Assembly: GCA_011042225.1 (NCBI GenBank)
Contig: DQXT01000033.1
Span: 1-50,714, forward strand
Direction of reading: 5' to 3'
Origin: Deltaproteobacteria bacterium
GTDB taxonomy: Bacteria > Desulfobacterota > Dissulfuribacteria > Dissulfuribacterales > UBA3076
DNA length: 50,714 nt
Part shown: piece by piece, positions 10,022 to 46,600 of the stretch
Position numbering within the stretch: position 1 is the first letter of the stretch
Layout of the letters: every line of letters begins with the position of its first letter
Notes under the pieces: model-generated
What the model was told of the DNA's origin: nothing
Databases searched by the model: none
Seen by the model: only the letters and a program-made list of their open reading frames with translations
Position numbers and translations under genes: made by a program

Positions 10022-10024
10022 CCT

Positions 10025-10975: not shown

Positions 10976-12331
10976 ATGCGCAAGTTGTTTGGTACAGACG
11001 GCATTCGCGGAACAGCCAACATCCATCCTATTACTACTGATATTGCCATGAAAATCGGGCGTGCCGTGGCATATATGTTTAAAAATCGCCGCGGGAGTCA
11101 TCCCAGGATACTCATAGGAAAGGATACTCGATTGTCCTGCTATATGCTGGAAAATGCGCTTGCAGGCGGGATATGTTCAATGGGAGTGGACGTTTTACTG
11201 CTGGGCCCCATGCCTACCCCTGCCATTGCCTTTCTTACCACCAACATGAGAGCGGATGCCGGAGTAGTTATATCTGCATCCCACAATCTCTTTCAGGATA
11301 ATGGAATAAAACTCTTTTCAGGGGATGGATTTAAATTGCCCGACGAGTTGGAAAAACAAATAGAGGAATTGATGGATTCGCAAATATTAACAGAATCCCA
11401 ACCAACCGGGCAAGATGTAGGCAAGGCGGTCCGCATCGAGGATGCCCCCGGCAGGTACATAGTATTTGTAAAAAACACGTTTCCCAAGGATCTTGCGCTG
11501 GATGGCCTCAGGATTGTCCTGGACTGTGCGAATGGGGCTACCTATAAAGTGGCTCCGGCTGTTTTTGAAGAGCTCGGGGCAAAGGTAACCAAATTGGGAG
11601 TAAGTCCAAACGGTACCAATATCAACTACAGGTGCGGAGCGGTTTATCCCGAACTCATGCAGAAGGCTGTAGTCGAGCACAAGGCTGATATTGGAATCGC
11701 ATTTGATGGGGACGGCGACCGTTTAATAGTAGTTGATGAAAAGGGTTCAGTAGTTGATGGCGATCATATTATGACAATATGTGCCTATGATATGATTGAC
11801 AAGGGAAGGCTTAACTTTAATACCGTAGTAGCAACGGTTATGAGCAACATGGGGCTAGAGATTGCTCTGGAGAACAAGGGGGGGAAACTGGTCCGAACTC
11901 AGGTTGGTGACCGCTACGTAGTGGAGGCCATGAGGCAGGCAGGTTACAACTTCGGCGGAGAACAATCGGGGCACCTGGTGTTTCTGGATCATATAACTAC
12001 GGGTGATGGTATTTTGGCTTCTCTACAGCTTTTGGCTATCATGCAAAAAAAGGAAAGGGCCCTTTCAGAACTTGCCGGAACGATGGATTCCTTTCCTCAG
12101 GTACTTCATAATGTCCGCTTGCGGGAGAAAAAGGCTTTAGATGAAATTGCCGGCCTCAGGGAACTCCAAGACCAGTTAGAAAAAGATCTTAAGCACAGGG
12201 GCAGGATACTCGTCAGACCATCAGGTACTGAACCGGTTATACGCATAATGGTTGAAGGCGAAAACGAGGAACAGATACAGGCCATGGCTATGACAATGGG
12301 TAATCATGTTGAGTCGGTCTGTGGAATTTAG
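10976..12331 (+). CDS. glmM: phosphoglucosamine mutase
   Basis: [29 protein letters not shown] and RPSGTEP. Confidence 0.97.
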
Positions 12332-13518
12332 TCCGCCTTTCTTCTCATAAAGGCGGGGATACTATCCAATTCATCGGTGTTTAGTTTATCAAGGCCGTCA
12401 AAGTCTAATACTGGTTTCTTCGAATTTTTTATGTGGTCGGTTATCCTAATAGGGTCCTTTTTGATACAGATTGACGGATCATGATCCGGTTTCATAGCCT
12501 TACTATTTTTCTTAATAGATTCTATTGGGGTAACAATATGCTTTCCAAAGGAAAGGGCGTCAGATCCTATACCGGTGGCTATTACCGTTACCCTTATCTC
12601 TTCATCTATATTGTCATCAAACACAGTTCCTAAAATTATATTAGCGTCTTCATGCGCCTCGTCGTAAATCAAAGAGGATGCCTGTTCTACCTCCTCCATG
12701 CTCAGAGTAGAACTGCTGGCAGTAATATTCAGCAGGATGCCCTTGGCACCGTTTATGGATATGTCTTCCAGCAAGGGATTGGATATGGCCATCTGTATTG
12801 CCTCCAAGGCCCTGCGTGATCCTTTGGCAACACCCGTACCCATAAGGGCCATCCCCATTTCAGCCGTGACTGTGCGAACATCGGCAAAATCCACATTTAT
12901 ATAACCCCTAAGGACTATGAGATCCGAAATGCCTCTTACTGCATAGTAAAGGACCTCATCTGCCTTTCGGAACATCTCTAGTATGGGAGTATTGGGTTGA
13001 GCCAGATTTCTGAGTCGGTCGTTTGGAATTGTTATTATGGTATCTACTACATCTTTCAATTCCTCTATCCCCTCTTCAGCCACACGCATTCTGCGTTTTC
13101 CTTCAAAGGAAAAAGGTTTTGTCACTACCGCCACTGTAAGGGCACCCAATTCTTTACTTATTTCAGCAATTACAGGGGCACCCCCGGTGCCGGTACCTCC
13201 ACCCATGCCGGCTGTGATAAAGACCATATCACTTCCTTCCAGCATAGTCCGGATATCATCTATGCTCTCTTCCGCGGATTCCCTGCCGATTTCAGGTTTT
13301 GCTCCTGCTCCGAGTCCCTTGGTAAGCCCTTTACCAAGCTGAATCTTTGCGCCGGCTTTGGATATTTCAAGGGCCTGAGAATCAGTGTTTGCAGCTATAA
13401 ACTCGACACCCTTGAGCTCAGAGGAAATCATGCTGTTAATAGCGTTTCCACCTCCGCCACCGACTCCTATTGCCTTTATCCTTGCAGTAAGTTTCGGTTC
13501 TATAAACTCAAAAGACAT
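12328..13518 (-). CDS. ftsZ: cell division GTPase FtsZ
   Basis: [24 protein letters not shown] and C-terminal peptide IPAFMRR. Confidence 0.99.
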
Positions 13519-13557: not shown

Positions 13558-14781
13558 CTAAATCTTAAACCATGACTTCATACGAAGGGTTACCTTGTTG
13601 AATATATTACCATCCCTTATTCGGAATTTTTTCTGGGAATGATGTTCCATGCCATAAAGCACAAGACCTACAGCAGTAGCAAACATGGGTCCGTTGACCA
13701 CATCCACCAAACCTGAAATCCTCTGTGGGAAGCCGATTCTTGTCGGCAACTGGAATACCTGATCCGCAATCTCAGCGGTTCCCGGCAGTAGGGCAGAGCC
13801 CCCGGTTATAACTATCCCCGAAGCCAATAGTTCCTTAAGTTCTGTCCGTTCTATTTCCTGGTCAATCAAGGTAAAAATCTCCTCTACCCTGGGCTCAAGT
13901 ATTTCAGACAGAATTTGCCTGGACAGAAGCCTGGGTTTACGTCCTCCCACACCGGGAACTTCTATCATCTGACCTCTGTCTGCCAGAGAATTGATACAGC
14001 TGCCGTCGCTTATCTTGATCTGTTCTGCCTCTTTACTGGGTGTCCTTAACCCGACTGCTATATCATTAGTGAGGTTGTTACCGCCAAGTCCCAGTACAGC
14101 TGTGTGTTTTATTGCACTTTCAGTAAATAGAGCAAGATCAGTGGTGCCACCACCAAAGTCCACAAGTGCAACACCCAGATCCTTTTCTTCCTGATTTAAG
14201 ACTGCTTCGGCCGAGGCAATGGGCTGAAAAACTATATCAACCACATCGAGCCCGGCCCTGTTTGCACACTTGATGAGGTTCTGGGCAGCCGTAACTGCTC
14301 CTGTCACGATATGTACCTTGGATTCCAGCCTTACACCGGTTATCCCTATAGGATCCAATATACCGCCCTGTTCATCTACGATATACTCCTGTGGCAGGAT
14401 ATGTATGACCTCTCTATCAAGGGGTATGGCTACCGCCCTTGCCGCATCTATAACTCTGTCAACGTCTTCCTGGGAGACCTCCTGGCCCTGTATGGCTATC
14501 ACCCCGTGACTGTTAAAACCCTTTATATGACTACCGGCGATGCCGATGAACACTGAGCTTATTTCACATCCGGCCATAAGTTCGGCCTCTTCAATAGCCC
14601 TTTTTATGGAATCGACCGTATTATCTATATTGACGACTACTCCCTTTCGCAGACCTACAGAAGGATAAGTCCCTACACCTATAATCTCGGCACTATTCTC
14701 ATTAAACTCGCCCACTACCGCACATATTTTAGTAGTGCCGATATCGAGCCCGACAATCATGTTACCGGGTTTTTCGACCAT
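13558..14781 (-). CDS. ftsA: cell division protein FtsA
   Basis: GLDIGTTKI, VDFGGGTTD, ITGGSA and FATAVGL. Confidence 0.98.
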   Translation of the reverse strand: MVEKPGNMIVGLDIGTTKICAVVGEFNENSAEIIGVGTYPSVGLRKGVVVNIDNTVDSIKRAIEEAELMAGCEISSVFIGIAGSHIKGFNSHGVIAIQGQEVSQEDVDRVIDAARAVAIPLDREVIHILPQEYIVDEQGGILDPIGITGVRLESKVHIVTGAVTAAQNLIKCANRAGLDVVDIVFQPIASAEAVLNQEEKDLGVALVDFGGGTTDLALFTESAIKHTAVLGLGGNNLTNDIAVGLRTPSKEAEQIKISDGSCINSLADRGQMIEVPGVGGRKPRLLSRQILSEILEPRVEEIFTLIDQEIERTELKELLASGIVITGGSALLPGTAEIADQVFQLPTRIGFPQRISGLVDVVNGPMFATAVGLVLYGMEHHSQKKFRIRDGNIFNKVTLRMKSWFKI

Positions 14782-14789
14782 TTCCTCTC

Positions 14790-15650
14790 CTAATGTTTCA
14801 AACTGACCAGGGCTTTGCCGGGACCATAATCGAGTTCCACCTTAACTGCTTTTTTATATGTCCCTGAGCGATAGAGTTGATAAAGGACTTTTTCCGCTCT
14901 ACTAAATTGGACGCCGAGATTTTCATAGTCAAAGTAAAAAGGAATACTGCCATAAGATGTAACCAGTATTAAGGTGTCTTTTTCAGCTATGTCTATTTGG
15001 CTGATATTGTTAACACCCAGAGTTCTTGTGCCCTTACTAGCCATGGATATCAACTCCAGGGCCTTTTGGATTCGGTTATTGTGCGATCTTGTTAAATTGT
15101 TATCTATAATGTTTTTAGGATCAATTCCTGTAATGATTGGAAGAGAGACGGATTCTTCTATTGAAAGTCTATCAATAATTTCGCCTTGTTCATCAATCAG
15201 GTACATTTTGTCGGAGTTCAAAATGGCTACCGGAGTGTGCTCTTTGAGCGTAATCATTAGGTGATCCGGCAATTTTTTTTTAACTTCAACACTATGGACC
15301 CAGGGATGCCCTTCTATGGACTTTGCAATCGATTCCAAGTCGAGAGACAGCAGATTGTCTTGGGCGGTCACATTACTCAATTGCAAAATCTCCTCTTCCG
15401 TGACACGGTCATTGCCTGTAATCAAAACCTGACAGACCCTAAAAAGCTCGGTTTGGTAAGCCCAATGTCGACACAAAAAAAAAGCGACAAAGCCAATGGA
15501 CATTACAGCTATAGCAACCAGTAATTTAGGATATATAGACCACAACACGGAAAACACCGGTTTTGTAGATTTGTCCCGCGAGATGAAGCTACATACTGAA
15601 GACCTGGATTCTAAAGACGGTCTTCTAATTTTCATGTTTCCATACCCCAA
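14790..15650 (-). CDS. ftsQ: cell division protein FtsQ
   Basis: Single TM segment, POTRA domain (ITGNDRV...HPWVHSVEVKKKLPD), E..PVA and YLIDEQG. dcw position. Confidence 0.9.
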   Translation of the reverse strand: MGYGNMKIRRPSLESRSSVCSFISRDKSTKPVFSVLWSIYPKLLVAIAVMSIGFVAFFLCRHWAYQTELFRVCQVLITGNDRVTEEEILQLSNVTAQDNLLSLDLESIAKSIEGHPWVHSVEVKKKLPDHLMITLKEHTPVAILNSDKMYLIDEQGEIIDRLSIEESVSLPIITGIDPKNIIDNNLTRSHNNRIQKALELISMASKGTRTLGVNNISQIDIAEKDTLILVTSYGSIPFYFDYENLGVQFSRAEKVLYQLYRSGTYKKAVKVELDYGPGKALVSLKH

Positions 15651-16609
15651 AAAGATACCTCCGGAACAAGTTCTACATCAGTCTCTTTTTTTACACGTTC
15701 TTTAATAATTTCCAATAAGTCCATTACCTCTACGGCGCTGGCTTTTCCACGGTTTATAATAAAATTTGCATGCCTTTTGGACACTTCAGCATCCCCAACT
15801 CTAAAACCTTTGAGTCCACATTGGTCTATGAGCTTTCCAGCTGAAACACCGGGGGGATTTTTGAAAATGCATCCCGCGCTTGGTTTTCCTAAAGGCTGGG
15901 TGGCTTTCCGCTGGCACATAGCGCTTCTCAAATGCTGCCTGATCTGATCGGCATTGCTTTTGCCGAATTTAATTCTTGCAGCCGAGATAATAGCATTGTC
16001 TTGCAGTCTGAAGGCCCTGTAATCAAAATACAATTGATCTCTATGAGACCAGCAACTACCATCAGGGCCTGTAAACTGAACAGCGTCTATCACTTCTGCC
16101 ATAAAGCACTTGTTAGTGCCGGCATTCATGAAGATGGCCCCGCCCACACTGGCCGGAATGCCGGAAAGATTTTCAAGACCGCCCAGGCTATTACGCACGG
16201 ACCAGGAAATAAGAGACCTCAGCCTGCAACCTGCCTCTACGTCTACCATTTTAAAGCGATGGCCATTAGCTGATCTCTCTTCCTGTAAAAAGGAACTAGA
16301 AGAAATTTGCCGGTGGTCCTCAGATTCAAATCTGCTTTCCACAGAGCATTGAATACGCTTCAGGGCCGCCAGAGACATAACCAGCTTCACGCCTTTGTCG
16401 CTGATCAAGAGATTGCTTCCTTGACCAATCACCTTATAAGATATGGAACGGTTACTGAGATAAAAAATGGTCTTTTCAAGGGCCTTCAATGTCTTCGGAG
16501 CCAGAAACAGATGTGCAGGCCCACCTATACGAAAACTCGTCAGCGGTAAAAGCGGTACACCTTCAAAGACTTGGAGATCTTCTATCTTTCTTAGATCCTT
16601 AGAGAGCAA
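15632..16609 (-). CDS. murB: UDP-N-acetylenolpyruvoylglucosamine reductase
   Basis: TSFRIGGPA, GQGSNLL, GIPASVGGAIFMNAG, SAGCIFKNP and HANFIIN. There is an ~25-aa insertion after the FAD loop. Confidence 0.96.
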   Translation of the reverse strand: MLSKDLRKIEDLQVFEGVPLLPLTSFRIGGPAHLFLAPKTLKALEKTIFYLSNRSISYKVIGQGSNLLISDKGVKLVMSLAALKRIQCSVESRFESEDHRQISSSSFLQEERSANGHRFKMVDVEAGCRLRSLISWSVRNSLGGLENLSGIPASVGGAIFMNAGTNKCFMAEVIDAVQFTGPDGSCWSHRDQLYFDYRAFRLQDNAIISAARIKFGKSNADQIRQHLRSAMCQRKATQPLGKPSAGCIFKNPPGVSAGKLIDQCGLKGFRVGDAEVSKRHANFIINRGKASAVEVMDLLEIIKERVKKETDVELVPEVSFWGMET

Positions 16610-17993
16610 TTGCTGACTCCTTTGTCTTAAGCATGCCCAAAATTCTCGGCCCCATATGCCCTATGGTACCAGCCCCAAGAGTCATGACCACGTCACCCTC
16701 CTGCAGGCTCGGCAAAATTGCCTGAGGAAGATCCCCGCATGACTCTATATAGTGTACTGTTCCACCACGTTGATTCATGATATTTCTTGCCAAACGTTTT
16801 CCGCTAACCCCTACTATGGGAGTCTCGCTCGCTGGATATATTTCCGTCAGCCACAGTTCATCAGCTTCTCCAAAGGCAGTGGTGAAATCGTCCATCAATG
16901 CCTGAGTTCTAGTATACCGATGGGGTTCGAAAAGAACCACGAGTCGGCGCTCAGGCCAACATGCCCTGGCGGCTTTGAGAGTGGCCACTATCTCAGTAGG
17001 GTGATGCGCATAGTCATCTACTACAATTATCCTTTCTGTTTCGCCCAATATCTCAAATCGCCTGCCTACACCTTCATATGACATAAGACCGGTCTGGATT
17101 TTGTGAAAGGGTATCTCAAGTTCAAGACCCAGGGCCATTGCGGCCAGAGAATTCCTTACATGGTGCAATCCAGGGACCTTGAGTTGTATCTCGCCAAGTT
17201 CGGAATTCTGCCACCAGGCATTGAAGGATACCCCCGGACCTTTGAAACTGATATCCCTGGCCTGTAGATCACATTCAGGTCCTGTACCATAAGTCATTGT
17301 TCGTTTTTTTACTACCGAGAGCATTTCTCTGAGGTGAGGGTTGTCTCCACAAAGTATGGCAAGACCATAGAAAGGTATTTTGTCTATGAAGTCCTGAAAA
17401 CAGCGTATTATTGCATCCAAATTGGAATAATAATCCAAGTGCTCCCTATCTATATTCGTTACCACGACTATGCTTGGTGTAAGGCGCAAAAAGCTGCCGT
17501 CACTTTCATCGGCTTCTGCTATAAGAAATTCGCCCTGTCCCCAATAGGCATTGCTCCCAATACCATTTACCTTCCCTCCTATGATAACCGTTGGATCAAG
17601 GCCACCGACACGAAGCACGGAAGAGATCATAGAGGTGGTGCTGGTCTTTCCATGTGCCCCGGCCACTGCTATGCCGAATTTTTTGAGCCGCATCAATTCT
17701 GCCACCATTTCAGCCCTTGGTATAACCGGAATTTGGGAAGAAAGTGCCCCCTGCACCTCAAGGTTATGTTCTCTGATGGCAGAGGAAATCACCACTACAT
17801 CGGCACCTTGAATATTTTCAGGGGCATGACCATTGTAAATTGTACCCCCCAATTTTCTTAGAGACCTGGTGATTTCAGTCTCACGCAAATCCGAACCCGT
17901 GACTTTATATCCCAGATTAAGAAGGATTTGTGCAAGGCCGCTCATGCCTATCCCGCCGATTCCTACAAAATGAATATGTTGTTTTTTATACAT
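16599..17993 (-). CDS. murC: UDP-N-acetylmuramate--L-alanine ligase
   Basis: HFVGIGGIGMSG, GAHGKTSTT, EADESD and DDYAHHPTE. Confidence 0.98.
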   Translation of the reverse strand: MYKKQHIHFVGIGGIGMSGLAQILLNLGYKVTGSDLRETEITRSLRKLGGTIYNGHAPENIQGADVVVISSAIREHNLEVQGALSSQIPVIPRAEMVAELMRLKKFGIAVAGAHGKTSTTSMISSVLRVGGLDPTVIIGGKVNGIGSNAYWGQGEFLIAEADESDGSFLRLTPSIVVVTNIDREHLDYYSNLDAIIRCFQDFIDKIPFYGLAILCGDNPHLREMLSVVKKRTMTYGTGPECDLQARDISFKGPGVSFNAWWQNSELGEIQLKVPGLHHVRNSLAAMALGLELEIPFHKIQTGLMSYEGVGRRFEILGETERIIVVDDYAHHPTEIVATLKAARACWPERRLVVLFEPHRYTRTQALMDDFTTAFGEADELWLTEIYPASETPIVGVSGKRLARNIMNQRGGTVHYIESCGDLPQAILPSLQEGDVVMTLGAGTIGHMGPRILGMLKTKESAIAL

Positions 17994-19188
17994 GGCTGCG
18001 TACTTTAGAACATTTCAATGAATTGGTTTCTTTTTGAGAACATGAAAATGTATGCCCGGCCATCTTCATCAGTGTAGAGGCCATATCTGCAGCCGCCTTG
18101 GGCCTTCCGAGTTTGCGCGCATTTTCTCCCATATTGTTGAGTTTTTGAGGATCCTCCAGTAAAGACTGTATCTCTCCTGCCAGTTTTATAGCTCCGACTT
18201 CTCCTTCCAGGAAATATTTGGAAGCCCCGGCTTCAGCCAGTTTTCTGGCGTTTGCATCCTGATGGCCGTCTGTTGCCCAAGGATAGGGAATAAGTATCGA
18301 AGGCTTTCCCGTAATCGCGAGTTCAGCCAAAGTACCCGCTCCTGCCCGGCAAATAACCAGATCTGCCCAGGAATAGGACTCACCAATGTCGGAAATAAAT
18401 TGGACCACTTTGGCCGGAATATTTGCATCTGCATAAAATTTCTCAACATAAGACATATCCAGCCTTCCTGTCTGGTGAATAATTCCCAAATGAAAACCAG
18501 ATTGCCACAGAACCTCTATGGCTGAACTGGCAAGCCGGTTCATGCATGTGGCACCCTGACTACCACCCAGGACCAAAATATTGTGTGATTGTGCGATCTT
18601 ATGATTTTGTGATTGGAATATGTCTTTCCGCACTGGATTTCCCGTAAAAATTACTCTGTTTCTTGGAAAATATTTGGTAGTCTCCTTAAAGCTCACAAAA
18701 ACTGTCTTTACAAATTTAGAGGCCAAACGATTTGTGAGGCCGGGTATAAGGTTCTGCTCATGAAGTGCTGCAGGTATCCGCAGTATCCGCGCTGCAAGAA
18801 GTGTGGGACCCGAGACATATCCGCCGACACCGAGCACCACATGAGGCCTGAATGATTTGAGCCACGAACAAGCCCTGATAGTGGAGAAAGGAAGTCCAGC
18901 CAGAGAACGTACAGTCCCTGAAATGCCTGAGCCCCTCAAAGGCCCCGTATTAAGGATTTTATAATCCCATTTATGTTCTAAAAGCGCATTTTTTTCCACC
19001 GGGCGGCCTGTACCTATCCACATAACATCTATAGGGCCGTATGATTCCATGGCCTCAACCACTGCCATTCCGGGAAATACATGCCCTCCCGTGCCGCCAC
19101 CAGCCACCACTAATTTGATGATTTGCCGGTTTGATGATTCGGTATTTGTTTTGTGCTTATATATTTCTCGACTCTTAGCCAAATTCAT
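17986..19188 (-). CDS. murG: undecaprenyldiphospho-muramoylpentapeptide beta-N-acetylglucosaminyltransferase
   Basis: AGGGTGGHVFP, GGYVS, HEQN, GNPVR, GGSQGA, RAGA and HQDANA. Confidence 0.97.
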   Translation of the reverse strand: MNLAKSREIYKHKTNTESSNRQIIKLVVAGGGTGGHVFPGMAVVEAMESYGPIDVMWIGTGRPVEKNALLEHKWDYKILNTGPLRGSGISGTVRSLAGLPFSTIRACSWLKSFRPHVVLGVGGYVSGPTLLAARILRIPAALHEQNLIPGLTNRLASKFVKTVFVSFKETTKYFPRNRVIFTGNPVRKDIFQSQNHKIAQSHNILVLGGSQGATCMNRLASSAIEVLWQSGFHLGIIHQTGRLDMSYVEKFYADANIPAKVVQFISDIGESYSWADLVICRAGAGTLAELAITGKPSILIPYPWATDGHQDANARKLAEAGASKYFLEGEVGAIKLAGEIQSLLEDPQKLNNMGENARKLGRPKAAADMASTLMKMAGHTFSCSQKETNSLKCSKVRSHV

Positions 19189-19242
19189 GACCTGCTCGCA
19201 GCTTTATTTTTAAATTAAAGTTCCTTTCCTGAAATAACCAAA

Positions 19243-20664
19243 TCACTCAATCAATAAATCATTCAATTCCCTGGCTGCCTCCTGAAAGGCCATGCCACGT
19301 TCTTCATAATTTTCGAACATGTCAAAGCTGGAACAGGCCGGGGAAAGAATTATTGCATCGCCGGGCTCAGCCAGGGACCTAGCTTTCTCCACGGCTTTTT
19401 TCATAACCTTTTTGCCTTCTTTTGTCCCATGTACTTTAACAACCGGCATTACCTTACCCAGAATTTTTTCAAACGCCTTGGCCTCTTCACCTATAACGAT
19501 CGCACCACGAACAACTGTCTTTTTAGCGATATCGGCCAGGGAACCATAATTTTCACCTTTGCCACGGCCGCCCAAAATAATTACTATTGGCTGTTCTATG
19601 GACTCTAGTGCACAAAGTACGGATGCAACATTAGTGGCCTTAGAATCGTCATAATAGTCGATACCCCCGTTTTGGACCACCCACTGAATTCTATGATTCG
19701 CTGCTTTGAAAATTCGAATAACAGACTTTACTGCAACAGCACCTGCACCTGCCAGACGTGAAATAAGTATGGCACAAGCCAAATTTTCAACATTATGTCG
19801 ACCCTTTAGAGACCAGCTTTCCAAATCATATCTTTCCCACGTATTATCAGACCACATTATGTCGATCTTTTTCAAAGAGGTGTCCAGCCCGGCCCCTGGA
19901 ACTCCAGGGCTCAGCATCCCAAAGTAAAGCCTTCTGGCACGTCCCCGGTCATTCCAAGTTTCTAGTTCCTTGTCATTCATGTTGCGTATGGACCAGTCAC
20001 CAGGCCCTTGAAAATCATAGATTACTGCCTTGCTGTCTCCGTAGCTTTTAATGTTCTGATAACGATCAAGATGATCCGGGGCAAGATTGAGCCATGCGGT
20101 TATATTGAACCTTGGGGGATTAAAGTTGAAATATCTGGTCCTCGGGAAATAATCCAATTGAAAACTGCTAATCTCAAGGACAGCAATAGTTTGCTCAGTA
20201 TGTCCTTCAATAAATGCCGACAAGGGTGTTCCGATGTTCCCAGCCCTTACATGAGGCACACCGGCCTTATTCAGCATCTCATCTACAAGCATCGTGGTAG
20301 TAGTTTTTCCATTTGTGCCGGTGATAGCAATAAGCGGTCCTTTCCAGACAGATGCAGCAAGGGCCATTTCTCCCAACACAGGGATGTTGTGCTTGTGTGC
20401 CGCCTCAAGGGCAGAAATTTCAGGTGAGACACCAGGGCTGACCACTATCAGGTCAGAGGAGAGGCAAGTGTCTATCTTGTGCTTTTTTGTCTCTATGCCG
20501 ACACCATTTTGGTGACACCATCTTGTGAAATCATTAGGCCATTCCTTAAGGGCATTTAAGTCACTGCATATGACTTGTGCCCCTTGAGAGACGATCCATC
20601 TGGCGGCTGCCTGCCCGGATACTCCCATGCCCAGTATTGTTACTTTTTTGCCCTTAAGCTCCAC
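19243..20664 (-). CDS. murD: UDP-N-acetylmuramoyl-L-alanine--D-glutamate ligase
   Basis: GMGVSG, ITGTNGKTTT, EISSFQL, DHLDRY, DSKATN and SPACSSFDMF. Confidence 0.97.
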   Translation of the reverse strand: MELKGKKVTILGMGVSGQAAARWIVSQGAQVICSDLNALKEWPNDFTRWCHQNGVGIETKKHKIDTCLSSDLIVVSPGVSPEISALEAAHKHNIPVLGEMALAASVWKGPLIAITGTNGKTTTTMLVDEMLNKAGVPHVRAGNIGTPLSAFIEGHTEQTIAVLEISSFQLDYFPRTRYFNFNPPRFNITAWLNLAPDHLDRYQNIKSYGDSKAVIYDFQGPGDWSIRNMNDKELETWNDRGRARRLYFGMLSPGVPGAGLDTSLKKIDIMWSDNTWERYDLESWSLKGRHNVENLACAILISRLAGAGAVAVKSVIRIFKAANHRIQWVVQNGGIDYYDDSKATNVASVLCALESIEQPIVIILGGRGKGENYGSLADIAKKTVVRGAIVIGEEAKAFEKILGKVMPVVKVHGTKEGKKVMKKAVEKARSLAEPGDAIILSPACSSFDMFENYEERGMAFQEAARELNDLLIE

Positions 20665-20760: not shown

Positions 20761-21840
20761 CTATCTCAATTTGAGCGTGCTGATTGCCAACAGCCCAAGC
20801 AATATGGAAATTATCCAAAACCTTACAATGACCTTTGGTTCTTTCCATCCTTTAAGCTCAAAATGATGATGGATAGGTGCCATACGGAAGATCCTCTTGC
20901 CTCCTGTTGTTTTGAAGTAAAGGACCTGAAGAATTACGGATAATGCCTCAATAACAAAAATCCCGCCTACAATTACAAGCAGCATTTCCTGCTTTGAAAG
21001 TACGGCCACCGTCCCAAGAGCCCCTCCCAAGGAAAGGGAGCCGACATCTCCCATGAAGATCTGGGCCGGATAGGTATTATACCAGAGGAAACCCAGACCG
21101 GCGCCTACCATGGCGCCACAAAACACTGCAAGCTCTCCTGCACCAGGAACCGAAGGAATCCGAAGGTATTGTGCAAGAGTCGAATGACCCGCCAGGTAGG
21201 TAAACAGGGTGTAAACCGCTGCAGCTATTATAAAAGGGCCTGCGGCAAGTCCGTCCAGACCATCGGTCAGGTTAACCGCATTAGAGGTCCCCACAACCAC
21301 AAGCAGAGCGAAAAGACCATACATAATTCCTAGATCAGGCTGAAAATTCTTAAAAAAAGGAATACTAAGATGGGTATCCCACTTACCATGTGCGGCAATT
21401 AACCCTGCGGCTAAAAATACAAAAACTATTTGCCCGACAAGCTTCAATCTGCCCGACAGACCTTTGGCATTCTTTTTCCAGATCTTTAACAGGTCGTCTA
21501 CGAGACCTATTATACCGTAACCGACAAGGATTAAAATGCTTATCCAAACATAAAGGTTTCTTAAGTCAGCCCAGAGAAGTGTAGCGATTAGAATGGACCC
21601 TATGATTAATATGCCCCCTATACTCGGTGTTCCGGCTTTTGTATGATGTATTGTCGGCCCATCGTCCCGGATGATCTGGCCCATCTGCATTTCACACATA
21701 ATTCTTATAAACCAAGGTCCAAAAATCAATATTATTGAAAGGGCAGTCACTGCAGCGTATATTGTTCTAAATGTAATATAGCGAAAAACGTTAAATACAG
21801 GCCACATATCGTTAAGGGGATATAGCAGATGAAAAAGCAT
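20761..21840 (-). CDS. mraY: phospho-N-acetylmuramoyl-pentapeptide transferase
   Basis: [28 protein letters not shown] and MAPIHHHFE. Confidence 0.98.
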
Positions 21841-21843
21841 AGC

Positions 21844-24800
21844 CTATACTGTCAACCCCCCTCTTTTACCCTCTCCCAGTTGCCTGATAAGGGCATTTAC
21901 CGCTCTCTCGAGACCTATGGCCCTTGATCCCTTTACAAGTATAGTTGCCGGAAAGGGCATACAATCAAGAGCAGCTAATTCTATCCAGGAAAGCAGATCT
22001 TCAATGTCAGGGAAAACACGTATAGCCTTTTTTGAAATACCCGCCTTTCTGGCTGTTTCAGAAACAGCATCAGCAAATTCGCCTATTAAGACCAAGAGAT
22101 CAACCCCCGTATTGGCTGAAATTCTTCCGAGTTCCTGATGAAACTCGTAGGCAGCATCTCCAAGTTCCAGCATATCTCCCAGAATCGCTATCTTTTTCCC
22201 GCCTCCGCTCCAAAAATCCAGAGTCTCAAGAGCCGATCGCATAGAGCAGGGGTTTGCATTATAAGAATCATCGATCAGCATCCATTTAGGTCCAAGATTT
22301 CTCAAAAAAAGGCGCCCCGGGAGCGGCCTTGCTTCCTCCAGCCCCTGTTTGATCAAAGCCGGCGTCACCCCTACTGCATGACCTGCAGCTGCAGATGCAA
22401 CGGCATTTTGTACATTCGCCTTCCCTATAAGGTGAAGATCAACATAAAGTCTGTTTCCGGCAATATCCAGATCCAGCAAAGTGCCATGTTCGCTTAATGT
22501 CCATGACAGGCAGGTAATTTTATCATTTGAAGATTTTAAAATTTGGTGATCTGGAAACGAATCCGCCTTTTGTCCCATTGAATAGCCCACGACCTGACAT
22601 TTTAGGTCTTTGGCCCCCTCCATCACCATAGGATCATCAAGGTTAACCACTGCTACACCCGTCTGGGAAATGGCTCGCCACAGCTCCCACTTTTCTTGGG
22701 CTACTGCCTTTAAGTCCCCCAGACCGACAAGATGGGCAGGTTGAATTGTAGTAATAAGGGCTACTTGCGGCTGGGCAATTTCACAGAGTCGTGATATTTC
22801 TCCCGGTTGGTTGGTTCCCATTTCCAGCACTGCCCAAGAATCGTTGGATCCGGCGGAAAGCAGGCTAAGCGGCAGGCCGATAAGGTTATTAAAATTGCCA
22901 CTGGTTTTAGCGACTTTCCATTTTTTTTTCAGGATCGAGAAAATCAGTTCTTTTGTGGTTGTCTTGCCGCAACTACCCGTAATGCCGATTACTTTGATTC
23001 CAAGATGGTTTTTATACCATGCTGCGAAATCTCCTAAGGCCTTTAATACATCCTGGACTTGCAATAAAACGGGACGACAAGATCGAGGGTCTAAATTCAA
23101 GTTTCGGAAGTCAAAGCTAGAACTAATTACTGCACTAGTACATCCTTGTCCTACAGCATCAAGGATAAAATCGTGCCCATTGAAACGGTCCCCGGAAAGT
23201 GCCCAAAAAATATTTGCCTTTCTTACTGATCTGGAATCTGTCGATATGCCCTGGATTAATGTATTAGGGTCACCTGAAAGAACTCTGGCTCCAATAGCCG
23301 TTGCCACCTGAGAAGCCTTTAATCGAAATCCATAATCCTCAAAATTCTCAAGCGTTGACCTTCCAGCTTCTATCTTTGATTCAAAGGCCTTTGTCAATAT
23401 TTCTCTGTCGTCAAAGACAAGTCGTTCCCTGCCGATTATTTGGTAGGTTTCGTGGCCCTTCCCAGCCACGAGAAGACAAACACCGGGCTGCGCCCTTTCT
23501 ACTGCCCATGAAATAGCTGCTTCTCTATCTGGAATTATTTTCACTTCAGCTTTGGTTGCAGGGTGACAGGGAGGGAGATCTCGGAGACCGTTCAACATCT
23601 GATCGATTATTGCAAGGGGATCTTCAGTACGAGGATTATCCGAAGTCAACACAACAATATCTGCCAGTGAAGCAGCTGCCCGGGCCATTAGAGGACGCTT
23701 GCCTCTGTCTCTGTCTCCTCCGCAGCCGATAACACAGATCAGAAGCTTATTAGGCCCTAACCCGATAAGGCTGCTAAGAACACTTTCCAGAGCGTCAGGG
23801 GTGTGTGCGTAATCTACAAAAGCGGTGACTCCATTGTGAGAATATACAGGATCCAGTCTTCCCGGAATACGTATTATTGATTTTATGCCGGCCTGAATAT
23901 GGTCCGGCTCTATCCCGAGACTGATTGAAACCGCTACTGTTGCAAGGATATTGTATAGGTTGTGCAAACCCATAAGCTTGGATTTGATGGAAATAGGGCC
24001 TTTGGGCGTAGATATATCACATATTATTCCTTCACTATCAATAAATTGAAACTCCGGTTTTACCTCTGCTTCAGGGCTGAGGCCATAACTGATCTTTTTC
24101 TCTTTTACTATCTCCCACAGACGCCTTCCATATAAGTCATCAATGTTAATAATTGCCGCATCAGAGGGATATTTCAAAAATAATTTTACTTTCGCCTGAA
24201 AGTATTGTTCCATGTCTTGGTGATAATCCAGGTGATCGCGACCTAGGTTGGTAAAAATAGATGCTGCGAAACTACATCCTGAGATCCTCTGCTGGTCAAG
24301 GGCATGGGAAGACACCTCTAAGGCCACTGCCTTTGCGCCTCTTTTCAACATGTTGGCCAGGGTCTCCTGAAGTTTTACGGCATCAGGGGTAGTAAGTTCA
24401 GAAGGCACCTCTATGCCGCAATGTCTTTGGCTTATCGAGCCTATTACACCGGGATTCAGCCCGGCTTTGCTGAAAATGCCTTCCAGGAGGTATGAAATCG
24501 TAGTCTTACCATTAGTGCCTGTAATAGCTATAAGAGACATTTTTTCACTTGGATTTCCATAAAAAGCACTTGCCAAAAGACCTATGGAAAGCCTGGGATC
24601 GTCCACTCCTATAACAGGCAAGGCCATGGGAACGTTTTTGACGTAATGATGCAGATCTTGCCTAGACATCAACACGGCGGAGGCACCTTTCACCACGGCA
24701 TCATTGATAAATTGTCTTCCGTCAAATTCAGTGCCTGGAATTGCAACAAACATGTATTCCCGTTTTACCTGTCTGGAGTCTGCTGTTATACCCCTGATTT

Positions 24801-24897
24801 TTACGTCGTACTTCTCAAATGATATAAAAACAGCGGGCTTCAACACTTCCAACATATCCCGCAAGGTCCTTTCGTTTTGCGTATTACCAAACATCAC
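21844..24897 (-). CDS. murE-murF: fused MurE (meso-DAP ligase) - MurF (D-Ala-D-Ala adding enzyme)
   Basis: MurE half: ITGTNGKTT, EVSSHAL, DHLDYH, DYAHTPD, DNPR, AGKGHE, FDDRE. After a short linker, MurF half: ISTDSR, ITGSCGKTTTK, NNLIGLP, EMG, DDSYNANP, GDMLELG, KGSR. One continuous ORF. Confidence 0.95.
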   Translation of the reverse strand: MMFGNTQNERTLRDMLEVLKPAVFISFEKYDVKIRGITADSRQVKREYMFVAIPGTEFDGRQFINDAVVKGASAVLMSRQDLHHYVKNVPMALPVIGVDDPRLSIGLLASAFYGNPSEKMSLIAITGTNGKTTISYLLEGIFSKAGLNPGVIGSISQRHCGIEVPSELTTPDAVKLQETLANMLKRGAKAVALEVSSHALDQQRISGCSFAASIFTNLGRDHLDYHQDMEQYFQAKVKLFLKYPSDAAIINIDDLYGRRLWEIVKEKKISYGLSPEAEVKPEFQFIDSEGIICDISTPKGPISIKSKLMGLHNLYNILATVAVSISLGIEPDHIQAGIKSIIRIPGRLDPVYSHNGVTAFVDYAHTPDALESVLSSLIGLGPNKLLICVIGCGGDRDRGKRPLMARAAASLADIVVLTSDNPRTEDPLAIIDQMLNGLRDLPPCHPATKAEVKIIPDREAAISWAVERAQPGVCLLVAGKGHETYQIIGRERLVFDDREILTKAFESKIEAGRSTLENFEDYGFRLKASQVATAIGARVLSGDPNTLIQGISTDSRSVRKANIFWALSGDRFNGHDFILDAVGQGCTSAVISSSFDFRNLNLDPRSCRPVLLQVQDVLKALGDFAAWYKNHLGIKVIGITGSCGKTTTKELIFSILKKKWKVAKTSGNFNNLIGLPLSLLSAGSNDSWAVLEMGTNQPGEISRLCEIAQPQVALITTIQPAHLVGLGDLKAVAQEKWELWRAISQTGVAVVNLDDPMVMEGAKDLKCQVVGYSMGQKADSFPDHQILKSSNDKITCLSWTLSEHGTLLDLDIAGNRLYVDLHLIGKANVQNAVASAAAGHAVGVTPALIKQGLEEARPLPGRLFLRNLGPKWMLIDDSYNANPCSMRSALETLDFWSGGGKKIAILGDMLELGDAAYEFHQELGRISANTGVDLLVLIGEFADAVSETARKAGISKKAIRVFPDIEDLLSWIELAALDCMPFPATILVKGSRAIGLERAVNALIRQLGEGKRGGLTV

Positions 24898-26651
24898 TCG
24901 CAGGTTATACTGCAGGTCTTCACACCATTAAGAGGTATTCCTGATTCTGGTTTCTGCGCGATCACGGTCCCTACACCTTTGAGCTCTGTATAAATGCCCA
25001 TGGATTGCAAAATGTCCAGGGCCTGTCTTACGGATTTTCCCTTAAGATTCGGCATAGTGGAAAACTGTCTTTCTGCCTCTTCGGTTTTCACCGTTCGCCA
25101 TTCGTCTTTCAAGGGTATCTGCACCGCCTGTTTTGCTACTACCAGTGAACGCCCTAAAGTGCCCCGACGCTCACGAGGGTCGATTTTTACGCCGTCGAGC
25201 AAAACAATATAACTTACTTTGGGTGATCTTTCGGGCCAGAATCCTAGGGCAGTAACCTGTGCTGGAAATTGATTAGAAATTTGGTCAGACTGTTCATTCC
25301 ACCTGATACTCGCAAGAGACGGCCCTCCTCTGACCGCGAGCTTTCTCAGCGATTTGTGTATCAGTTCTTCTGTCAACCAGGAAATTGGGGCATGCTTTTG
25401 GTCATTCGCGGAAGAGCCCGGTATCAAAAATTCATCAGTGCTTTGTAGGGCCACGTGCGGTGTAACTAATATATTTTTATTTATCAGGGCAGAGAAGGCC
25501 CTGAGAATCTGGATAGGACTGGCGGTAACGGCCTGCCGCAAGAGGCTATTACGTAACCCTGCCGGGGCTGATGGGAGGCTGCCCCGGCCTTCACCCGGAA
25601 GGTCGATACCTGTAAATTGACCAAATCCCAGACCCCAGAGATCTCTTGAAATGTCATTATAAGGGACAATATCCTTTAACTCCTTTTCAGTCCAGGGACT
25701 CCATAATACCATACCCTTATCCAAAACCTCCCATTGGCACTGGTGGGCGGTTTTCCCCAAAGGCAAAATCTCTGACTTTTGAAGTTCACTTTGTTCAAAC
25801 ATCCAGTTTAAAAGGGGCACAAGTATCATCAGGTCAACATTATCTTGGAGAGAATAGTTTATGATATTCCTCTCAGATATTTCCCAAAAACGTTCAGGAT
25901 CCCAGGAAGGCTTGCTGGCAAGGGCAAGAATCTCACCATTTTCAACACCCATTATAACAAAACAGCCTTTCTCTGCCTTAAGTCTTTTGATCTGCCTGTC
26001 AAGCTCTTTTTCTGCTGATGACTGAATATCTTTACTAAGTGCAAGCGTAAGATCCTGTCTACCTGGGTAAATTTGTGACCCTTTAGTTTGCCTTAAAAGG
26101 CTATCATATGTGTATTCAATTCCCTCAAGACCTCTGCCGCCTTGGTCGACAAATCCCAAAACCGGAGAAGCCAGTGAATTACAAGGATATACCCTTTTAT
26201 ATTGTTCCAGTATTTCTAAGCCTCTAACCTGCATGTCTTTGAGCTTCCGGCCTTGTTCTTCGGAAATACAGTCTTTTAGACATATAAGGTCCTGCTCATC
26301 TGCAAGCATATCTTTCAAAGTTGGCAAATCAAGGTCAAGAATTTCTGACACCTCTGCCAGCCAATCATCAACTTGCCGCAAACGGGAAGGCCGCGCCAAG
26401 ATAGAGATTTTTTTTTGGTTTGCAACAAATATTGCTCCTGTCCTGTCAAGGATCATGCCTCTATCTAAGGGACTTTGCTGGGAATAGTAGCCGGTGTTTT
26501 GTTGTTGACAAAGCATGGACGAATCAATGTCATCTTCGCTATTGACAGCGTTGCCTTGCCAAAGACAACCAACAAACGCTGCGGCAATAACAGCAAGACT
26601 CAATAAGCTGAAAAGAAAAGAAATTTTCTTTTTTTTATAAGGAAAAATCAT
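24894..26651 (-). CDS. ftsI: FtsI/PBP3-like class B PBP with C-terminal PASTA domain; transpeptidase motifs absent
   Basis: ftsI position between ftsL and murE. N-terminal TM, pedestal motifs RGMILDRTG, RVYP and GLEGIE, then GEILALAS, GFGQFTGIDLPGE, SPIQ, GFWP and PASTA MPNLKGKSVRQA. No SxxK, SxN or KTG at the expected positions. Confidence 0.85.
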   Translation of the reverse strand: MIFPYKKKKISFLFSLLSLAVIAAAFVGCLWQGNAVNSEDDIDSSMLCQQQNTGYYSQQSPLDRGMILDRTGAIFVANQKKISILARPSRLRQVDDWLAEVSEILDLDLPTLKDMLADEQDLICLKDCISEEQGRKLKDMQVRGLEILEQYKRVYPCNSLASPVLGFVDQGGRGLEGIEYTYDSLLRQTKGSQIYPGRQDLTLALSKDIQSSAEKELDRQIKRLKAEKGCFVIMGVENGEILALASKPSWDPERFWEISERNIINYSLQDNVDLMILVPLLNWMFEQSELQKSEILPLGKTAHQCQWEVLDKGMVLWSPWTEKELKDIVPYNDISRDLWGLGFGQFTGIDLPGEGRGSLPSAPAGLRNSLLRQAVTASPIQILRAFSALINKNILVTPHVALQSTDEFLIPGSSANDQKHAPISWLTEELIHKSLRKLAVRGGPSLASIRWNEQSDQISNQFPAQVTALGFWPERSPKVSYIVLLDGVKIDPRERRGTLGRSLVVAKQAVQIPLKDEWRTVKTEEAERQFSTMPNLKGKSVRQALDILQSMGIYTELKGVGTVIAQKPESGIPLNGVKTCSITCE

Positions 26652-26662
26652 TCTGATCTCGA

Positions 26663-27025
26663 TCAGTTGAGATATATTATTTGCCGTTTAGTAGGTGGAT
26701 GAAGTCCCATTTCACCCCCCAATTTTTCCATATGGCTGCGTGCCTTGATCCGATCCAGCCGAGTGGTGAAATCCTTATATCGATTACTGAGTCGGCCTTG
26801 TTCCCTTTGAAGCAACTCTAAGTCCTTTGCTGTTTCTCTGACTTCGTGAGTAATCAAAATTCCTAGAATTAATAAAGCGCCTAAAACAATCAGCGCAATG
26901 GCCTTATTAAGGCTCATTTTGAGTATTTTTGATAACAAAAGGTGGTCACAGGCCCTGTTTTTCTGTGCCGTCGAAACATATGAGCGTCTCTGGGGTGTTC
27001 TAATTGTTGCTGATCGGAGACTCAT
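26663..27025 (-). CDS. ftsL: cell division protein FtsL
   Basis: Small basic N-tail, one TM segment, coiled coil and LGGEMGLHPP end. Located between rsmH and ftsI. ATG27025 follows a GGGAG SD. Confidence 0.8.
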   Translation of the reverse strand: MSLRSATIRTPQRRSYVSTAQKNRACDHLLLSKILKMSLNKAIALIVLGALLILGILITHEVRETAKDLELLQREQGRLSNRYKDFTTRLDRIKARSHMEKLGGEMGLHPPTKRQIIYLN

Positions 27026-27077
27026 TTTCTCCCCTCCCAAAACAGGTTTTTGTCAAAAGGCTCAAGGGCACTTTTAT

Positions 27078-27230: not shown

Positions 27231-28193
27231 TTATAGTAATTGGGTCAGAGCAGTATTCTGCCCTCTATATTGAGCAACTCTTAGCTTGGCACTTCTAGCC
27301 CGGGGATTACTATTTATTTCTTCAAGGCTTGGCACCAAAGGTTTTTTAGTTAAGGGCTTCAATCTCTTGTCTTCTCTGAAAGCGATTTTGACCAGACGGT
27401 CCTCCATAGAATGAAAGGAGATAACACACATTCGTCCTCCGGGTCTCAGACAAGATGGGAATGAGTCAAGGGCCTCTTTAAGATTGTCCAGTTCTCGGTT
27501 CAATGCGATTCGAAGTGCCTGGAAGGTGCGTGTAGCGGGATGAATTCGGCGTGGATGATATTTTCTCGGAATGGAATCGGCAATCACTTCCGCCAGGTCT
27601 CTCGAACTCAGAATAACTTCTGCCTTGCGCCTTTCATATATGCGTTTGGCGATCCTTTTTGCCCATCTTTCTTCCCCATATGTATGGATAAGCTCGGTCA
27701 ATCTTTCAACCGAAAGCTTATTGACTATGTCGGCAGCAGTCACTGCACCAGATTGATCCATGCGCATGTCAAGAGGTTCGTCCCTGGAAAAGCTGAAGCC
27801 TCTCCCGCTGTTTTCCAAATGGAAGCTGGAAATGCCGAGATCCATAAGTATGCCATCAACTTGCTCTATTCTGTTGGATAAAAGAACATCACGAAGATGA
27901 ATGAAGTTGCTGTAAACTAATCGAACCCTGCTGCCAAATGCGGCCAATCTGGATCCGGCCTTTTTCATGGCTTCTGTATCATAATCAAGGGCCAGCACCA
28001 TTTTGACTTCGGGGCACCTTGACAGTATGGCCTCTGTATGGCCTCCCAGACCAAGTGTTGCATCCACATAGATACCCCCTGACCTCAATGACAGGCCATC
28101 CAGAACTTCGGAGAGCATTACAGGGACATGCATGGCCTCTTTTCTAACCGCTAATTCCGAATTTGGCGGTGATATCGCTGCTGTACTGATCAA
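27231..28193 (-). CDS. rsmH: 16S rRNA m4C1402 methyltransferase RsmH (MraW); real start likely near MHVPV
   Basis: HVPVML, DATLGLGGH, DLGISS, PLDMRMD, HPATRTFQALRI, FHSMEDR and NPRARSAKLR. Confidence 0.97.
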   Translation of the reverse strand: MISTAAISPPNSELAVRKEAMHVPVMLSEVLDGLSLRSGGIYVDATLGLGGHTEAILSRCPEVKMVLALDYDTEAMKKAGSRLAAFGSRVRLVYSNFIHLRDVLLSNRIEQVDGILMDLGISSFHLENSGRGFSFSRDEPLDMRMDQSGAVTAADIVNKLSVERLTELIHTYGEERWAKRIAKRIYERRKAEVILSSRDLAEVIADSIPRKYHPRRIHPATRTFQALRIALNRELDNLKEALDSFPSCLRPGGRMCVISFHSMEDRLVKIAFREDKRLKPLTKKPLVPSLEEINSNPRARSAKLRVAQYRGQNTALTQLL

Positions 28194-45881: not shown

Positions 45882-45883
45882 AT

Positions 45884-46501: not shown

Positions 46502-46600
46502 AAAATATATTCTCAGGTTGTAACCCCCTATACTCTTTGATAGGCGTAAATAATTAGTCGGATTAGTTATTAAAAAATAAAATACAGAAGGAGAACGAGC

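Follow-up and report, generated by a model that had tools for sequence, protein, structure and literature searches.

How does a bacterium build its division septum when ftsW is missing from a division and cell wall (dcw) gene cluster that is otherwise complete? The question is posed by a stretch of 50,714 nucleotides (positions 1 to 50,714 of contig DQXT01000033.1, assembly GCA_011042225.1), referred to here as the window, from a deltaproteobacterium (lineage Desulfobacterota; Dissulfuribacteria; Dissulfuribacterales; UBA3076). In the canonical model drawn from E. coli and P. aeruginosa, the septal synthase is a pair composed of FtsW, of the SEDS family (shape, elongation, division and sporulation), and FtsI, a class B penicillin-binding protein (bPBP), and the pair is activated by FtsQLB. 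It has been considered universally conserved and essential for making the septal wall, with Clostridioides difficile presented in 2023 as an organism that lacks it (PMC10693644). An earlier note, made from the sequence of the window alone, pointed to the missing ftsW and to a seemingly dead FtsI, and proposed a rewired divisome in this diderm lineage. In this report, we found that ftsW is genuinely absent from the genome and from its whole class, and that the descendant of FtsI is conserved as a protein that has no catalytic motif. We consider it likely that these bacteria divide independently of an FtsW-FtsI synthase.

The dcw cluster lies on the minus strand of the window in the order mraZ-rsmH-ftsL-ftsI-murEF-mraY-murD-murG-murC-murB-ftsQ-ftsA-ftsZ, as read from the list of open reading frames (ORFs) and from Pfam and NCBIfam scans. 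Pfam was used for gene calls throughout, and NCBIfam additionally for ftsL, ftsI, murD, murG and the off-window RodA and MrdA (PBP2). The slot that ftsW occupies in related FtsW-bearing genomes is flanked by murD (473 aa; 19243..20664, minus strand; TIGR01087 382 bits, cut-off 212, with Pfam Mur ligase domains) and murG (400 aa; 17986..19188, minus strand; TIGR01133 316 bits, cut-off 250, with the Pfam GT28 N and C domains). The stop codon of murD lies at 19243-19245 and the ATG of murG at 19188. The spacer on this strand (19189..19242) thus measures 54 bp and is therefore too short for any gene remnant. Further, we compared 18 other genomes of the class, which represent 10 families and include a closed genome of 2.03 Mb, at one dcw locus each: murD adjoins murG in 18 of 18, and no SEDS-like ORF was found in any of these loci. 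As a control, we inspected the dcw loci of FtsW-bearing genomes in the same phylum, and a SEDS gene sits between murD and murG in 22 of 22. The spacer is also crossed, with at least 31 letters on each side and no indels, by Logan contigs from all four of the independent runs counted (X2, X3, X6 and X18), which come from four studies and carry three habitat labels: marine, hydrothermal vent and oil field. One further run, possibly the source sample, was left out of this count. The junction is not an assembly artefact.

We also searched the assembly as a whole (153 contigs, 2.05 Mb, 96.38% complete, 0.39% contamination) for SEDS genes. Six-frame translation of all of it yielded a single match to Pfam PF01098, on contig C4; the window has none. 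The protein found there, of 369 aa, exceeds the NCBIfam cut-off for RodA (TIGR02210, 402.6 bits against 336.7) and falls below that for FtsW (TIGR02614, 296.1 bits against 337.5). Its gene closes a row consisting of mreB, mreC, a 177-aa ORF that matches nothing in Pfam, mrdA and rodA, directly after mrdA, whose 635-aa product is itself well above its cut-off (TIGR03423, 716.7 bits against 455). In a maximum-likelihood tree of 48 SEDS proteins from the phylum, 22 dcw-encoded FtsW separate from 26 mrdA-linked SEDS with an SH-aLRT support of 100 (a quick IQ-TREE search of 48 rows, two long rows being flagged). The window genome's protein falls on the RodA side, together with 11 other proteins of the class and six single SEDS proteins of other FtsW-less genomes. 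By score, by position after mreB-mreC-mrdA and by phylogeny, the one SEDS protein of this genome is RodA.

This state is not peculiar to the window genome; it is common to the whole class and to further lineages of the phylum, which the earlier note could not see. The class consists of one order, and our set comprised 51 genomes of at least 90% completeness, the window genome included. Exactly one SEDS match was found in 50 of these, among them the closed, one-contig genome G024; in one of the 50 (G060) the match is only a fragment. A looser set of 41 relatives gave 39 with one match, and the two with none are 70% and 74% complete. The search itself was checked on an even sample of 121 genomes of the phylum, which returned two SEDS matches in 94 genomes, three in 2 and one in 25. 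A match above the FtsW cut-off is present in 98 of the 121 and in none of the four that belong to the class.

Could ftsW and an active ftsI nonetheless reside in unassembled or unbinned DNA, or could the murD-murG junction be misassembled? The genome is a bin of 153 contigs, some 96.4% complete, and the bin of one other class member (G044, 90% complete) has zero SEDS matches. Against this stand the single SEDS in 50 of 51 genomes, one of them closed, the identical junction in 18 of 18 loci and its bridging in four of four runs. As described below, the FtsI of the dcw cluster is also dead in 17 of 17 copies. We regard the explanation as hardly credible. The earlier note's gene order, its 54 bp between murD and murG (to the exact coordinate), its statement that the window has no SEDS-family ORF and its premise that ftsW normally lies between these genes have all held up. 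Genomic checks of the kind that it proposed agree: the junction is continuous, no bona fide ftsW or intact FtsI paralogue was found elsewhere in the genome or the class, and a tree dividing RodA from FtsW places the lone SEDS with RodA.

What, then, has become of FtsI? The ftsI slot holds a gene for 585 aa (24894..26651, minus strand) with Pfam matches to PBP_dimer (50 bits), Transpeptidase (45 bits) and PASTA (32 bits). The protein comprises an N-terminal membrane helix, a pedestal (PBP_dimer), a transpeptidase-fold domain and a C-terminal PASTA domain. Its Transpeptidase match spans only profile positions 124-222 of 299; intact FtsI proteins from four FtsW-bearing relatives score 261-285 bits on the same model. 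It lies under every NCBIfam cut-off for a bPBP, the best match being spoVD_pbp (129 bits, cut-off 688); the FtsI subfamily model NF011685 gives 61 bits (cut-off 737). The position of the SxxK motif reads VDLMILVP, that of SxN reads SPW, and KTG has no counterpart. In two intact FtsI proteins of FtsW-bearing relatives, the motifs are STFK or STLK, SSN and KTGT, and in this genome's MrdA they are STFK, SCD and KTGT. All three motifs are missing from each of 17 class copies examined (the window and 16 others, from 10 families) and are intact in all the controls, i.e., the two FtsI proteins and MrdA. The suspicion of a dead FtsI was correct, and we refer to the protein as pseudo-FtsI. Its public names are “PASTA domain-containing protein”, “SpoVD” and “penicillin-binding transpeptidase domain-containing protein”.

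Pseudo-FtsI is a descendant of FtsI, because it occupies the slot between ftsL and murE, shares its architecture and falls outside the MrdA clade. The PBP_dimer-transpeptidase-PASTA arrangement is common to pseudo-FtsI and to the FtsI of three of the four FtsW-bearing relatives checked, and the MrdA clade, outside which it falls, has a support of 100 in a bPBP tree of 65 rows. By sequence, the closest relatives of known structure are SpoVD and PBP3 of C. difficile. An AlphaFold2 model (pLDDT 78.8, pTM 0.72), in which residues 6-34 form an N-terminal helix, was compared to the Protein Data Bank using Foldseek. The best matches are chains of P. aeruginosa PBP3, headed by 4kqr_B (E = 1.6e-30), with TM-scores of 0.57 (on the query) and 0.63 at 18% identity. 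According to this model, the protein is predicted to keep the overall PBP3-like fold of a bPBP.

A dead enzyme in a gene cluster might be nothing more than a decaying relic that has no function, in which case division would need neither pseudo-FtsI nor FtsQLB in their usual roles. The protein has certainly diverged. Between families of the class, its sequence identity is 29-36%, compared to 65-78% for MraY and 56-83% for FtsA (71-83% in 16 of 18 loci), and its end branches between families in the bPBP tree, at 0.8-1.9, are about twice those of intact FtsI (0.3-0.9), a comparison that comes with long-branch warnings. Its length also varies, from 410 to 585 aa in the class and from 248 to 324 aa in other lineages. 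On the other hand, every one of the 16 class loci covering the slot has an open frame, free of stop codons and frameshifts. Using the Nei-Gojobori method on the window genome and two congeners, we obtained ratios of nonsynonymous to synonymous substitution (dN/dS) of 0.25 and 0.24 for the gene, like those of the neighboring enzymes (MurD 0.23 and 0.14, MurG 0.25 and 0.20) and of FtsQ (0.23 and 0.18); the FtsA values are smaller (0.03 and 0.07). For the dead transpeptidase region taken alone the ratios are 0.15 and 0.22, and for the pedestal region 0.40 and 0.18. These values indicate that the gene is held by purifying selection. Further, 14 columns are invariant and 31 nearly so among 44 homologs. 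They cluster in the pedestal and N-module (I67, D69, R70 and G72; R153, G166, G172, G174, G177, E179 and Y180; and the segment from G229 to A243) and in two blocks of the transpeptidase fold, G342 to L359 and P379 to F386. Given this conservation and the confident bPBP-like model, it would surprise us greatly if the protein were a functionless remnant.

The phylum sample provides a wider view. Apart from the four genomes of the class, the 23 that have no match above the FtsW cut-off include three near misses (330-337 bits), one with a divergent ftsW in place (G163), one fragment (G120) and G075; the rest fall into six families. No SEDS gene lies between murD and murG in any of the eight genomes examined from these families. 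A search at E values up to 10 uncovered no second SEDS in five FtsW-less genomes outside the class, each of which keeps RodA. G075, a closed genome of the Desulfobulbus family (f23), has two Pfam SEDS matches (best E = 7e-72), neither above the FtsW cut-off; one of them may be a divergent second SEDS, which would make this genome an exception in its FtsW-less family.

In these families, too, FtsI has degenerated, and to different degrees. Families f23, f26 and f54 have a full-length homolog of 610-656 aa from which all three motifs are missing, and the dcw FtsI proteins of D. elongatus DSM 2908, D. alkaliphilus DSM 24258 and two Desulfobulbus bins likewise have no SxxK, SxN or KTG. The ftsI slot of f37, represented by a closed genome of 1.8 Mb, encodes a 324-aa protein in which just the N-terminal part survives. 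The corresponding protein of f12 and f64, 248-324 aa long, consists of the N-terminal membrane helix and a weak PASTA-like end, the transpeptidase domain being gone; in the three of four proteins that were scanned, Pfam detected the PASTA-like end at E values from 1e-4 to 1e-2, and in L045 it was recognized by sequence only. The reduced genes are located at 4836-5810 in locus L039, 5091-6005 in L043, 15073-15819 in L040, 15092-15856 in L045 and 5001-5975 in L042. Together with the full-length dead copies, these reduced forms make up a graded series. The loss of ftsW and the degeneration of FtsI coincide in every case, i.e., in the 16 class loci that cover both slots and in the eight genomes outside the class. 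Related genomes are not independent counts, and both proteins are intact in the two controls in which motifs were checked.

The ftsW slot of f12 and f64 is not empty. It harbors an ORF for a polytopic membrane protein of about 262 aa, conserved in four genomes with a mean column identity of 55% (L039 11216-12007; L043 11213-12001; L040 9085-9879; L045 9107-9892). We considered a degenerate FtsW and rejected it: the hhalign probability is 1.9%, and there is no Pfam match at E values up to 1. A SEDS search of two of the genomes bearing the ORF also gave no match for that slot at E values up to 10. The ORF may be what is left of a degenerate gene, or it may be a new gene.

How often did this state arise? 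In a tree of eight concatenated dcw proteins (49 rows, 3001 columns, LG+G4, quick search), the class is monophyletic with a support of 100, and the FtsW-less label requires four changes. We also used IQ-TREE on a reduced set of 35 rows, of which 6 represent the class, 8 other FtsW-less genomes and 21 FtsW-bearing ones; 13 class rows and the gappy G100 were dropped. Forcing all FtsW-less rows into one clade was rejected by the approximately unbiased test (p = 3e-05, a log-likelihood difference of 151), and the FtsW-less state therefore has at least two origins, with the caveat that the tree is built from the dcw genes themselves and by fast searches. A grouping of the class with f23, f26, f54 and f37 was not rejected (p = 0.35); one loss may be common to the class and the Desulfobulbus group.

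The remainder of the division core is in place. FtsZ, FtsA, FtsQ, FtsL and FtsB are all kept in the genome, FtsB being recognized by its DivIC match (45 bits, cut-off 28.9), and two SPOR-domain proteins and two YkuD LD-transpeptidases are encoded as well. Four domains in the genome match a transpeptidase model: MrdA, one class A PBP, a 470-aa PBP and, weakly, pseudo-FtsI. The class A PBP is the only one (688-689 aa, with a GT51 and a transpeptidase domain). Such a protein is present in 51 of 51 genomes of the bacterial class, in a single copy but for one extra GT51 in G021. Five other class genomes examined for transpeptidase domains have MrdA, a class A PBP and, in four of the five (none in G023), the weak pseudo-FtsI match; G024 has one additional weak match of 23.7 bits. 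As the earlier note had it, ftsZ, ftsA, ftsQ and ftsL survive the loss of ftsW and the death of FtsI, and ftsB may be added to them. The alternatives that it named, class A PBP and RodA-PBP2, are exactly the synthases left; which of them makes the septum we can only infer. Its picture of a rewired divisome is likewise supported, given that the loss and the dead FtsI are class-wide and the rest of the core is kept.

ftsW and an active FtsI have been lost; we propose that division is probably FtsWI-independent, with pseudo-FtsI as a non-catalytic component. This judgement leaves aside the choice of synthase. The cells would divide without a dedicated SEDS-bPBP septal synthase, pseudo-FtsI would persist within the FtsQLB module as a subunit with a structural or regulatory role, and septal peptidoglycan would come from the remaining synthases, class A PBP and/or RodA-PBP2. 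Among these, the candidate that we favor, albeit with reserve, is the single class A PBP, which would act as both septal polymerase and cross-linker and would be recruited or regulated by FtsQLB and pseudo-FtsI. We lean toward it because it supplies both activities, because there is a worked precedent in C. difficile (PMC10693644), because E. coli FtsBLQ is reported to regulate PBP1b (PMC6325244), and because RodA is neither relocated nor unusually divergent. That class A PBP and RodA-PBP2 both operate at the septum seems quite doubtful.

RodA-PBP2 could instead be the septal synthase by itself. It would then be the sole SEDS pair for both elongation and division, the helix and pedestal of pseudo-FtsI would bring RodA to the FtsZ ring or activate it there under FtsQLB, and cross-linking would be carried out by PBP2 or the class A PBP. 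RodA is, after all, the only SEDS left, kept in 50 of 51 class genomes and in five of five other FtsW-less genomes, and among the columns that do not vary in it are the HTDF aspartate and the QPSE block, which we take to be catalytic or essential residues. In canonical complexes, the pedestal of the bPBP contacts the SEDS partner. The most conserved columns of pseudo-FtsI are the pedestal and N-module motifs, the dN/dS ratios of the pedestal given above fit this reading, and this best-kept part argues for a surviving SEDS partner, namely RodA. But RodA remains in the mreB-mreC-mrdA-rodA operon, and its branches in the SEDS tree are ordinary, with a class stem of 0.17 and end branches like those of other RodA proteins. 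Further, the FtsI remnants of other FtsW-less lineages have no pedestal (f12, f64) or only an N-terminal part (f37), and therefore a contact between pedestal and SEDS is not universally needed. A complex prediction of RodA with residues 1-270 of pseudo-FtsI returned a score of 0.00; it was run without controls and carries no weight either way. On balance, RodA-PBP2 as the septal synthase appears unlikely to us.

A different enzyme might have replaced the pair: the 470-aa PBP, the LD-transpeptidases or an unrecognized polymerase. The 470-aa protein (contig C66; L004 1399-2811, minus strand), which has SIFK and KSGS motifs and no pedestal, is encoded beside a PIN-domain gene. A global survey proposes pedestal-less bPBPs as stand-ins in phyla that have no FtsI (PMC12516126), and this genome has such a protein as well as its two YkuD enzymes. 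The distribution of the protein speaks against a replacement. It occurs patchily in 35 of the 121 phylum genomes, unrelated to FtsW status, and all carriers other than the window genome are FtsW-bearing or of unexamined FtsW status. The three other class genomes of that sample gave no match to it, and neither did f12, f23, f26 or f37; its distribution rules it out as a general substitute. No such extra transpeptidase exists in the five other class genomes, and the five FtsW-less genomes searched at E values up to 10 have no second SEDS. We give little credence to a replacement of this kind.

Several facts weigh against FtsWI-independent division driven by a class A PBP, and they should be set beside the conserved pedestal. 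The window genome and most of its relatives are metagenome bins, and G044 demonstrates that bins do miss genes. The ftsL gene (125 aa; 26663..27040, minus strand) owes its name mainly to its position between rsmH and ftsI; its matches, Pfam FtsL_2 (23.4 bits, cut-off 24.6) and NCBIfam FtsL_Actino (19.4 bits), are both below threshold. The class A PBP gene has panE, rho and prfA, which are unrelated to it, as its neighbors and is not placed with division genes. Finally, neither candidate is discriminating by its presence: GT51 is found in five of five other FtsW-less genomes and in 120 of 121 phylum genomes irrespective of FtsW, and RodA is kept in every FtsW-less genome that we looked at.

Comparison to known systems sharpens the picture. 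Vegetative division of C. difficile proceeds with no FtsW or FtsI and uses the class A PBP1, and RodA-PBP2, encoded beside mreBCD, serves elongation (Shrestha et al. 2023, PMC10693644); the earlier note was right to cite it as a precedent. According to that report, C. difficile resembles the present lineage in having no division-specific FtsW/FtsI pair, in keeping FtsQ, FtsL and FtsB, in having RodA-PBP2 beside mreBCD as its only other SEDS-bPBP pair, and in having a class A PBP available. Judged from its genes, the window genome likewise appears to have no pair able to make septal wall and does have a class A PBP. The differences are equally plain. Our lineage is a non-sporulating diderm, known here from genes alone, whose dcw SEDS has been deleted outright and whose dcw bPBP is kept but dead, whereas the dcw pair of C. 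difficile is described as the active SpoVE/SpoVD of sporulation (PMC10693644).

With the canonical FtsW-FtsI system, the lineage shares the gene slot, the pedestal-transpeptidase fold, FtsQ, FtsL and FtsB, and the FtsZ and FtsA genes at the end of the cluster. It differs in having no FtsW and a bPBP without the nucleophile serine, SxN or KTG, and so neither activity of the pair can come from it. For B. subtilis and for C. difficile, a canonical bPBP that is inactive is reported still to support division as long as the activity comes from another PBP (PMC12516126). These cases resemble ours in that the presence of the protein matters and its transpeptidase activity does not, which supports a scaffold role. 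As described there, they are engineered or conditional and keep the SEDS partner; here, the inactivity is natural, fixed in the class and coupled to the loss of the SEDS.

Within the phylum, Desulfobulbaceae and cable bacteria were reported to have no ftsW, its absence being stated for four Desulfobulbaceae genomes (Geerlings et al. 2021, PMC7873302). There, FtsI figures as a normal member of the divisome that is recruited to it, and septal synthesis is explained by what FtsI does in E. coli. The Desulfobulbaceae are of the same phylum as our class, and Desulfobulbus-type loci also have murD adjoining murG. In contrast to the treatment in PMC7873302, we found the dcw FtsI of the Desulfobulbus copies to be dead, and the Dissulfuribacteria-type class was outside the scope of that work. 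In the bacteria-wide survey of bPBPs and SEDS, Thermotogota and Deinococcota are given as having no FtsI; Desulfobacterota go unmentioned in the main text, and these taxa could be listed in the supplementary tables (PMC12516126). Seep-SRB2 has been placed in Dissulfuribacterales (PMC10553843), and a term search of the accessible text of that paper returned no occurrence of FtsW, “cell division” or “peptidoglycan”. Our literature searches returned nothing on FtsW in this class and no published report of a dead FtsI. The absence of ftsW in the sister group was thus already noted in passing in 2021. We did not find in print that the state extends over a whole class, that a dead FtsI is conserved, that it has been reduced by degrees or that the state arose repeatedly.

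The other members of the cluster, all on the minus strand, were identified by their domains: mraZ (28144..28593; PF02381, 98 bits), rsmH, also called mraW (27231..28193; PF01795, 359 bits), mraY (20761..21840; PF00953, 117 bits), murC (16599..17993; Mur ligase N, M and C domains), murB (15632..16609; MurB_C and FAD_binding_4), ftsQ (14790..15650; POTRA_1, 67 bits, and FtsQ_DivIB_C), ftsA (13558..14781; FtsA and SHS2_FTSA) and ftsZ (12328..13518; Tubulin and FtsZ_C). MurE and MurF are fused into a single ORF of 1017 aa (21844..24897) that has two sets of Mur ligase domains. The fusion is present in 13 of 18 class loci; three are split (G021, G023 and G026) and two are cut by the start of the locus. 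It also occurs in a Desulfobulbus-type locus (L041), and natural MurE-MurF chimeras have been described (PMC10214165). murB and ftsQ overlap in the window (15632-15650), and most class loci likewise have no gene between them (from an overlap to 97 bp). In most FtsW-bearing relatives the two genes stand about 0.9-1 kb apart (e.g., L044 15848-16927), a gap presumably occupied by ddl, which appears to have moved out of the dcw cluster in this class.

A YceG/MltG-family gene (28895-29962, minus strand, 298 bits) is located just upstream of mraZ on the same strand, and so a glycan-strand terminase borders the dcw cluster. Convergent with ftsZ are cdaA (with a DAC domain), ybbR and glmM (9224-12331, plus strand), a c-di-AMP synthase operon beside the division cluster. 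A protein of 598 aa (39592-41388, plus strand) has Amidase_3, TPR and AMIN domains and is likely a septum-targeted cell-wall amidase; OmpA-family and OmpH genes follow it. Farther along (45878-50603, plus strand) are genes for an Arf/Ras-like GTPase of 207 aa, a 550-aa ORF that has no Pfam match, and a 785-aa ATPase of the T2SSE type with TPR and MshEN domains, which may form a motility or secretion module.

We tentatively extend the argument to a large and partly cultured block of diderm Desulfobacterota, which takes in the Seep-SRB2/Dissulfuribacteria class, Desulfobulbus together with the cable bacteria, and other lineages besides. It is possible that this whole block divides without a SEDS-bPBP septal synthase, and that FtsI was converted, at least two times independently, into a selected pseudoenzyme, an adaptor by which FtsQLB would switch on a non-cognate synthase (class A PBP or RodA-PBP2) at the Z ring. 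If this is true, the graded series would trace the dismantling of an essential enzyme pair with its regulatory shell kept, from a dead domain to a deleted domain to a bare membrane anchor with a PASTA-like end.

FtsWI-less division in these organisms would mean that bacteria of the Gram-negative type reached this state by a second route, independently of the Firmicutes, with the state fixed in an entire class and recurring elsewhere in the phylum. Pseudo-FtsI can be viewed as a natural “separation of function” allele, its fold apparently kept and still under selection with no catalytic motif. It makes testable both the role of the non-catalytic part of FtsI and the question of which synthase FtsQLB can drive, and cultured relatives exist in Desulfobulbus species and in Dissulfuribacter and Dissulfurirhabdus (PMC10553843). 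The finding bears on the annotation of this protein family under its public names. It also bears on the biology of the syntrophic partners of methane-oxidizing archaea and of the cable bacteria.

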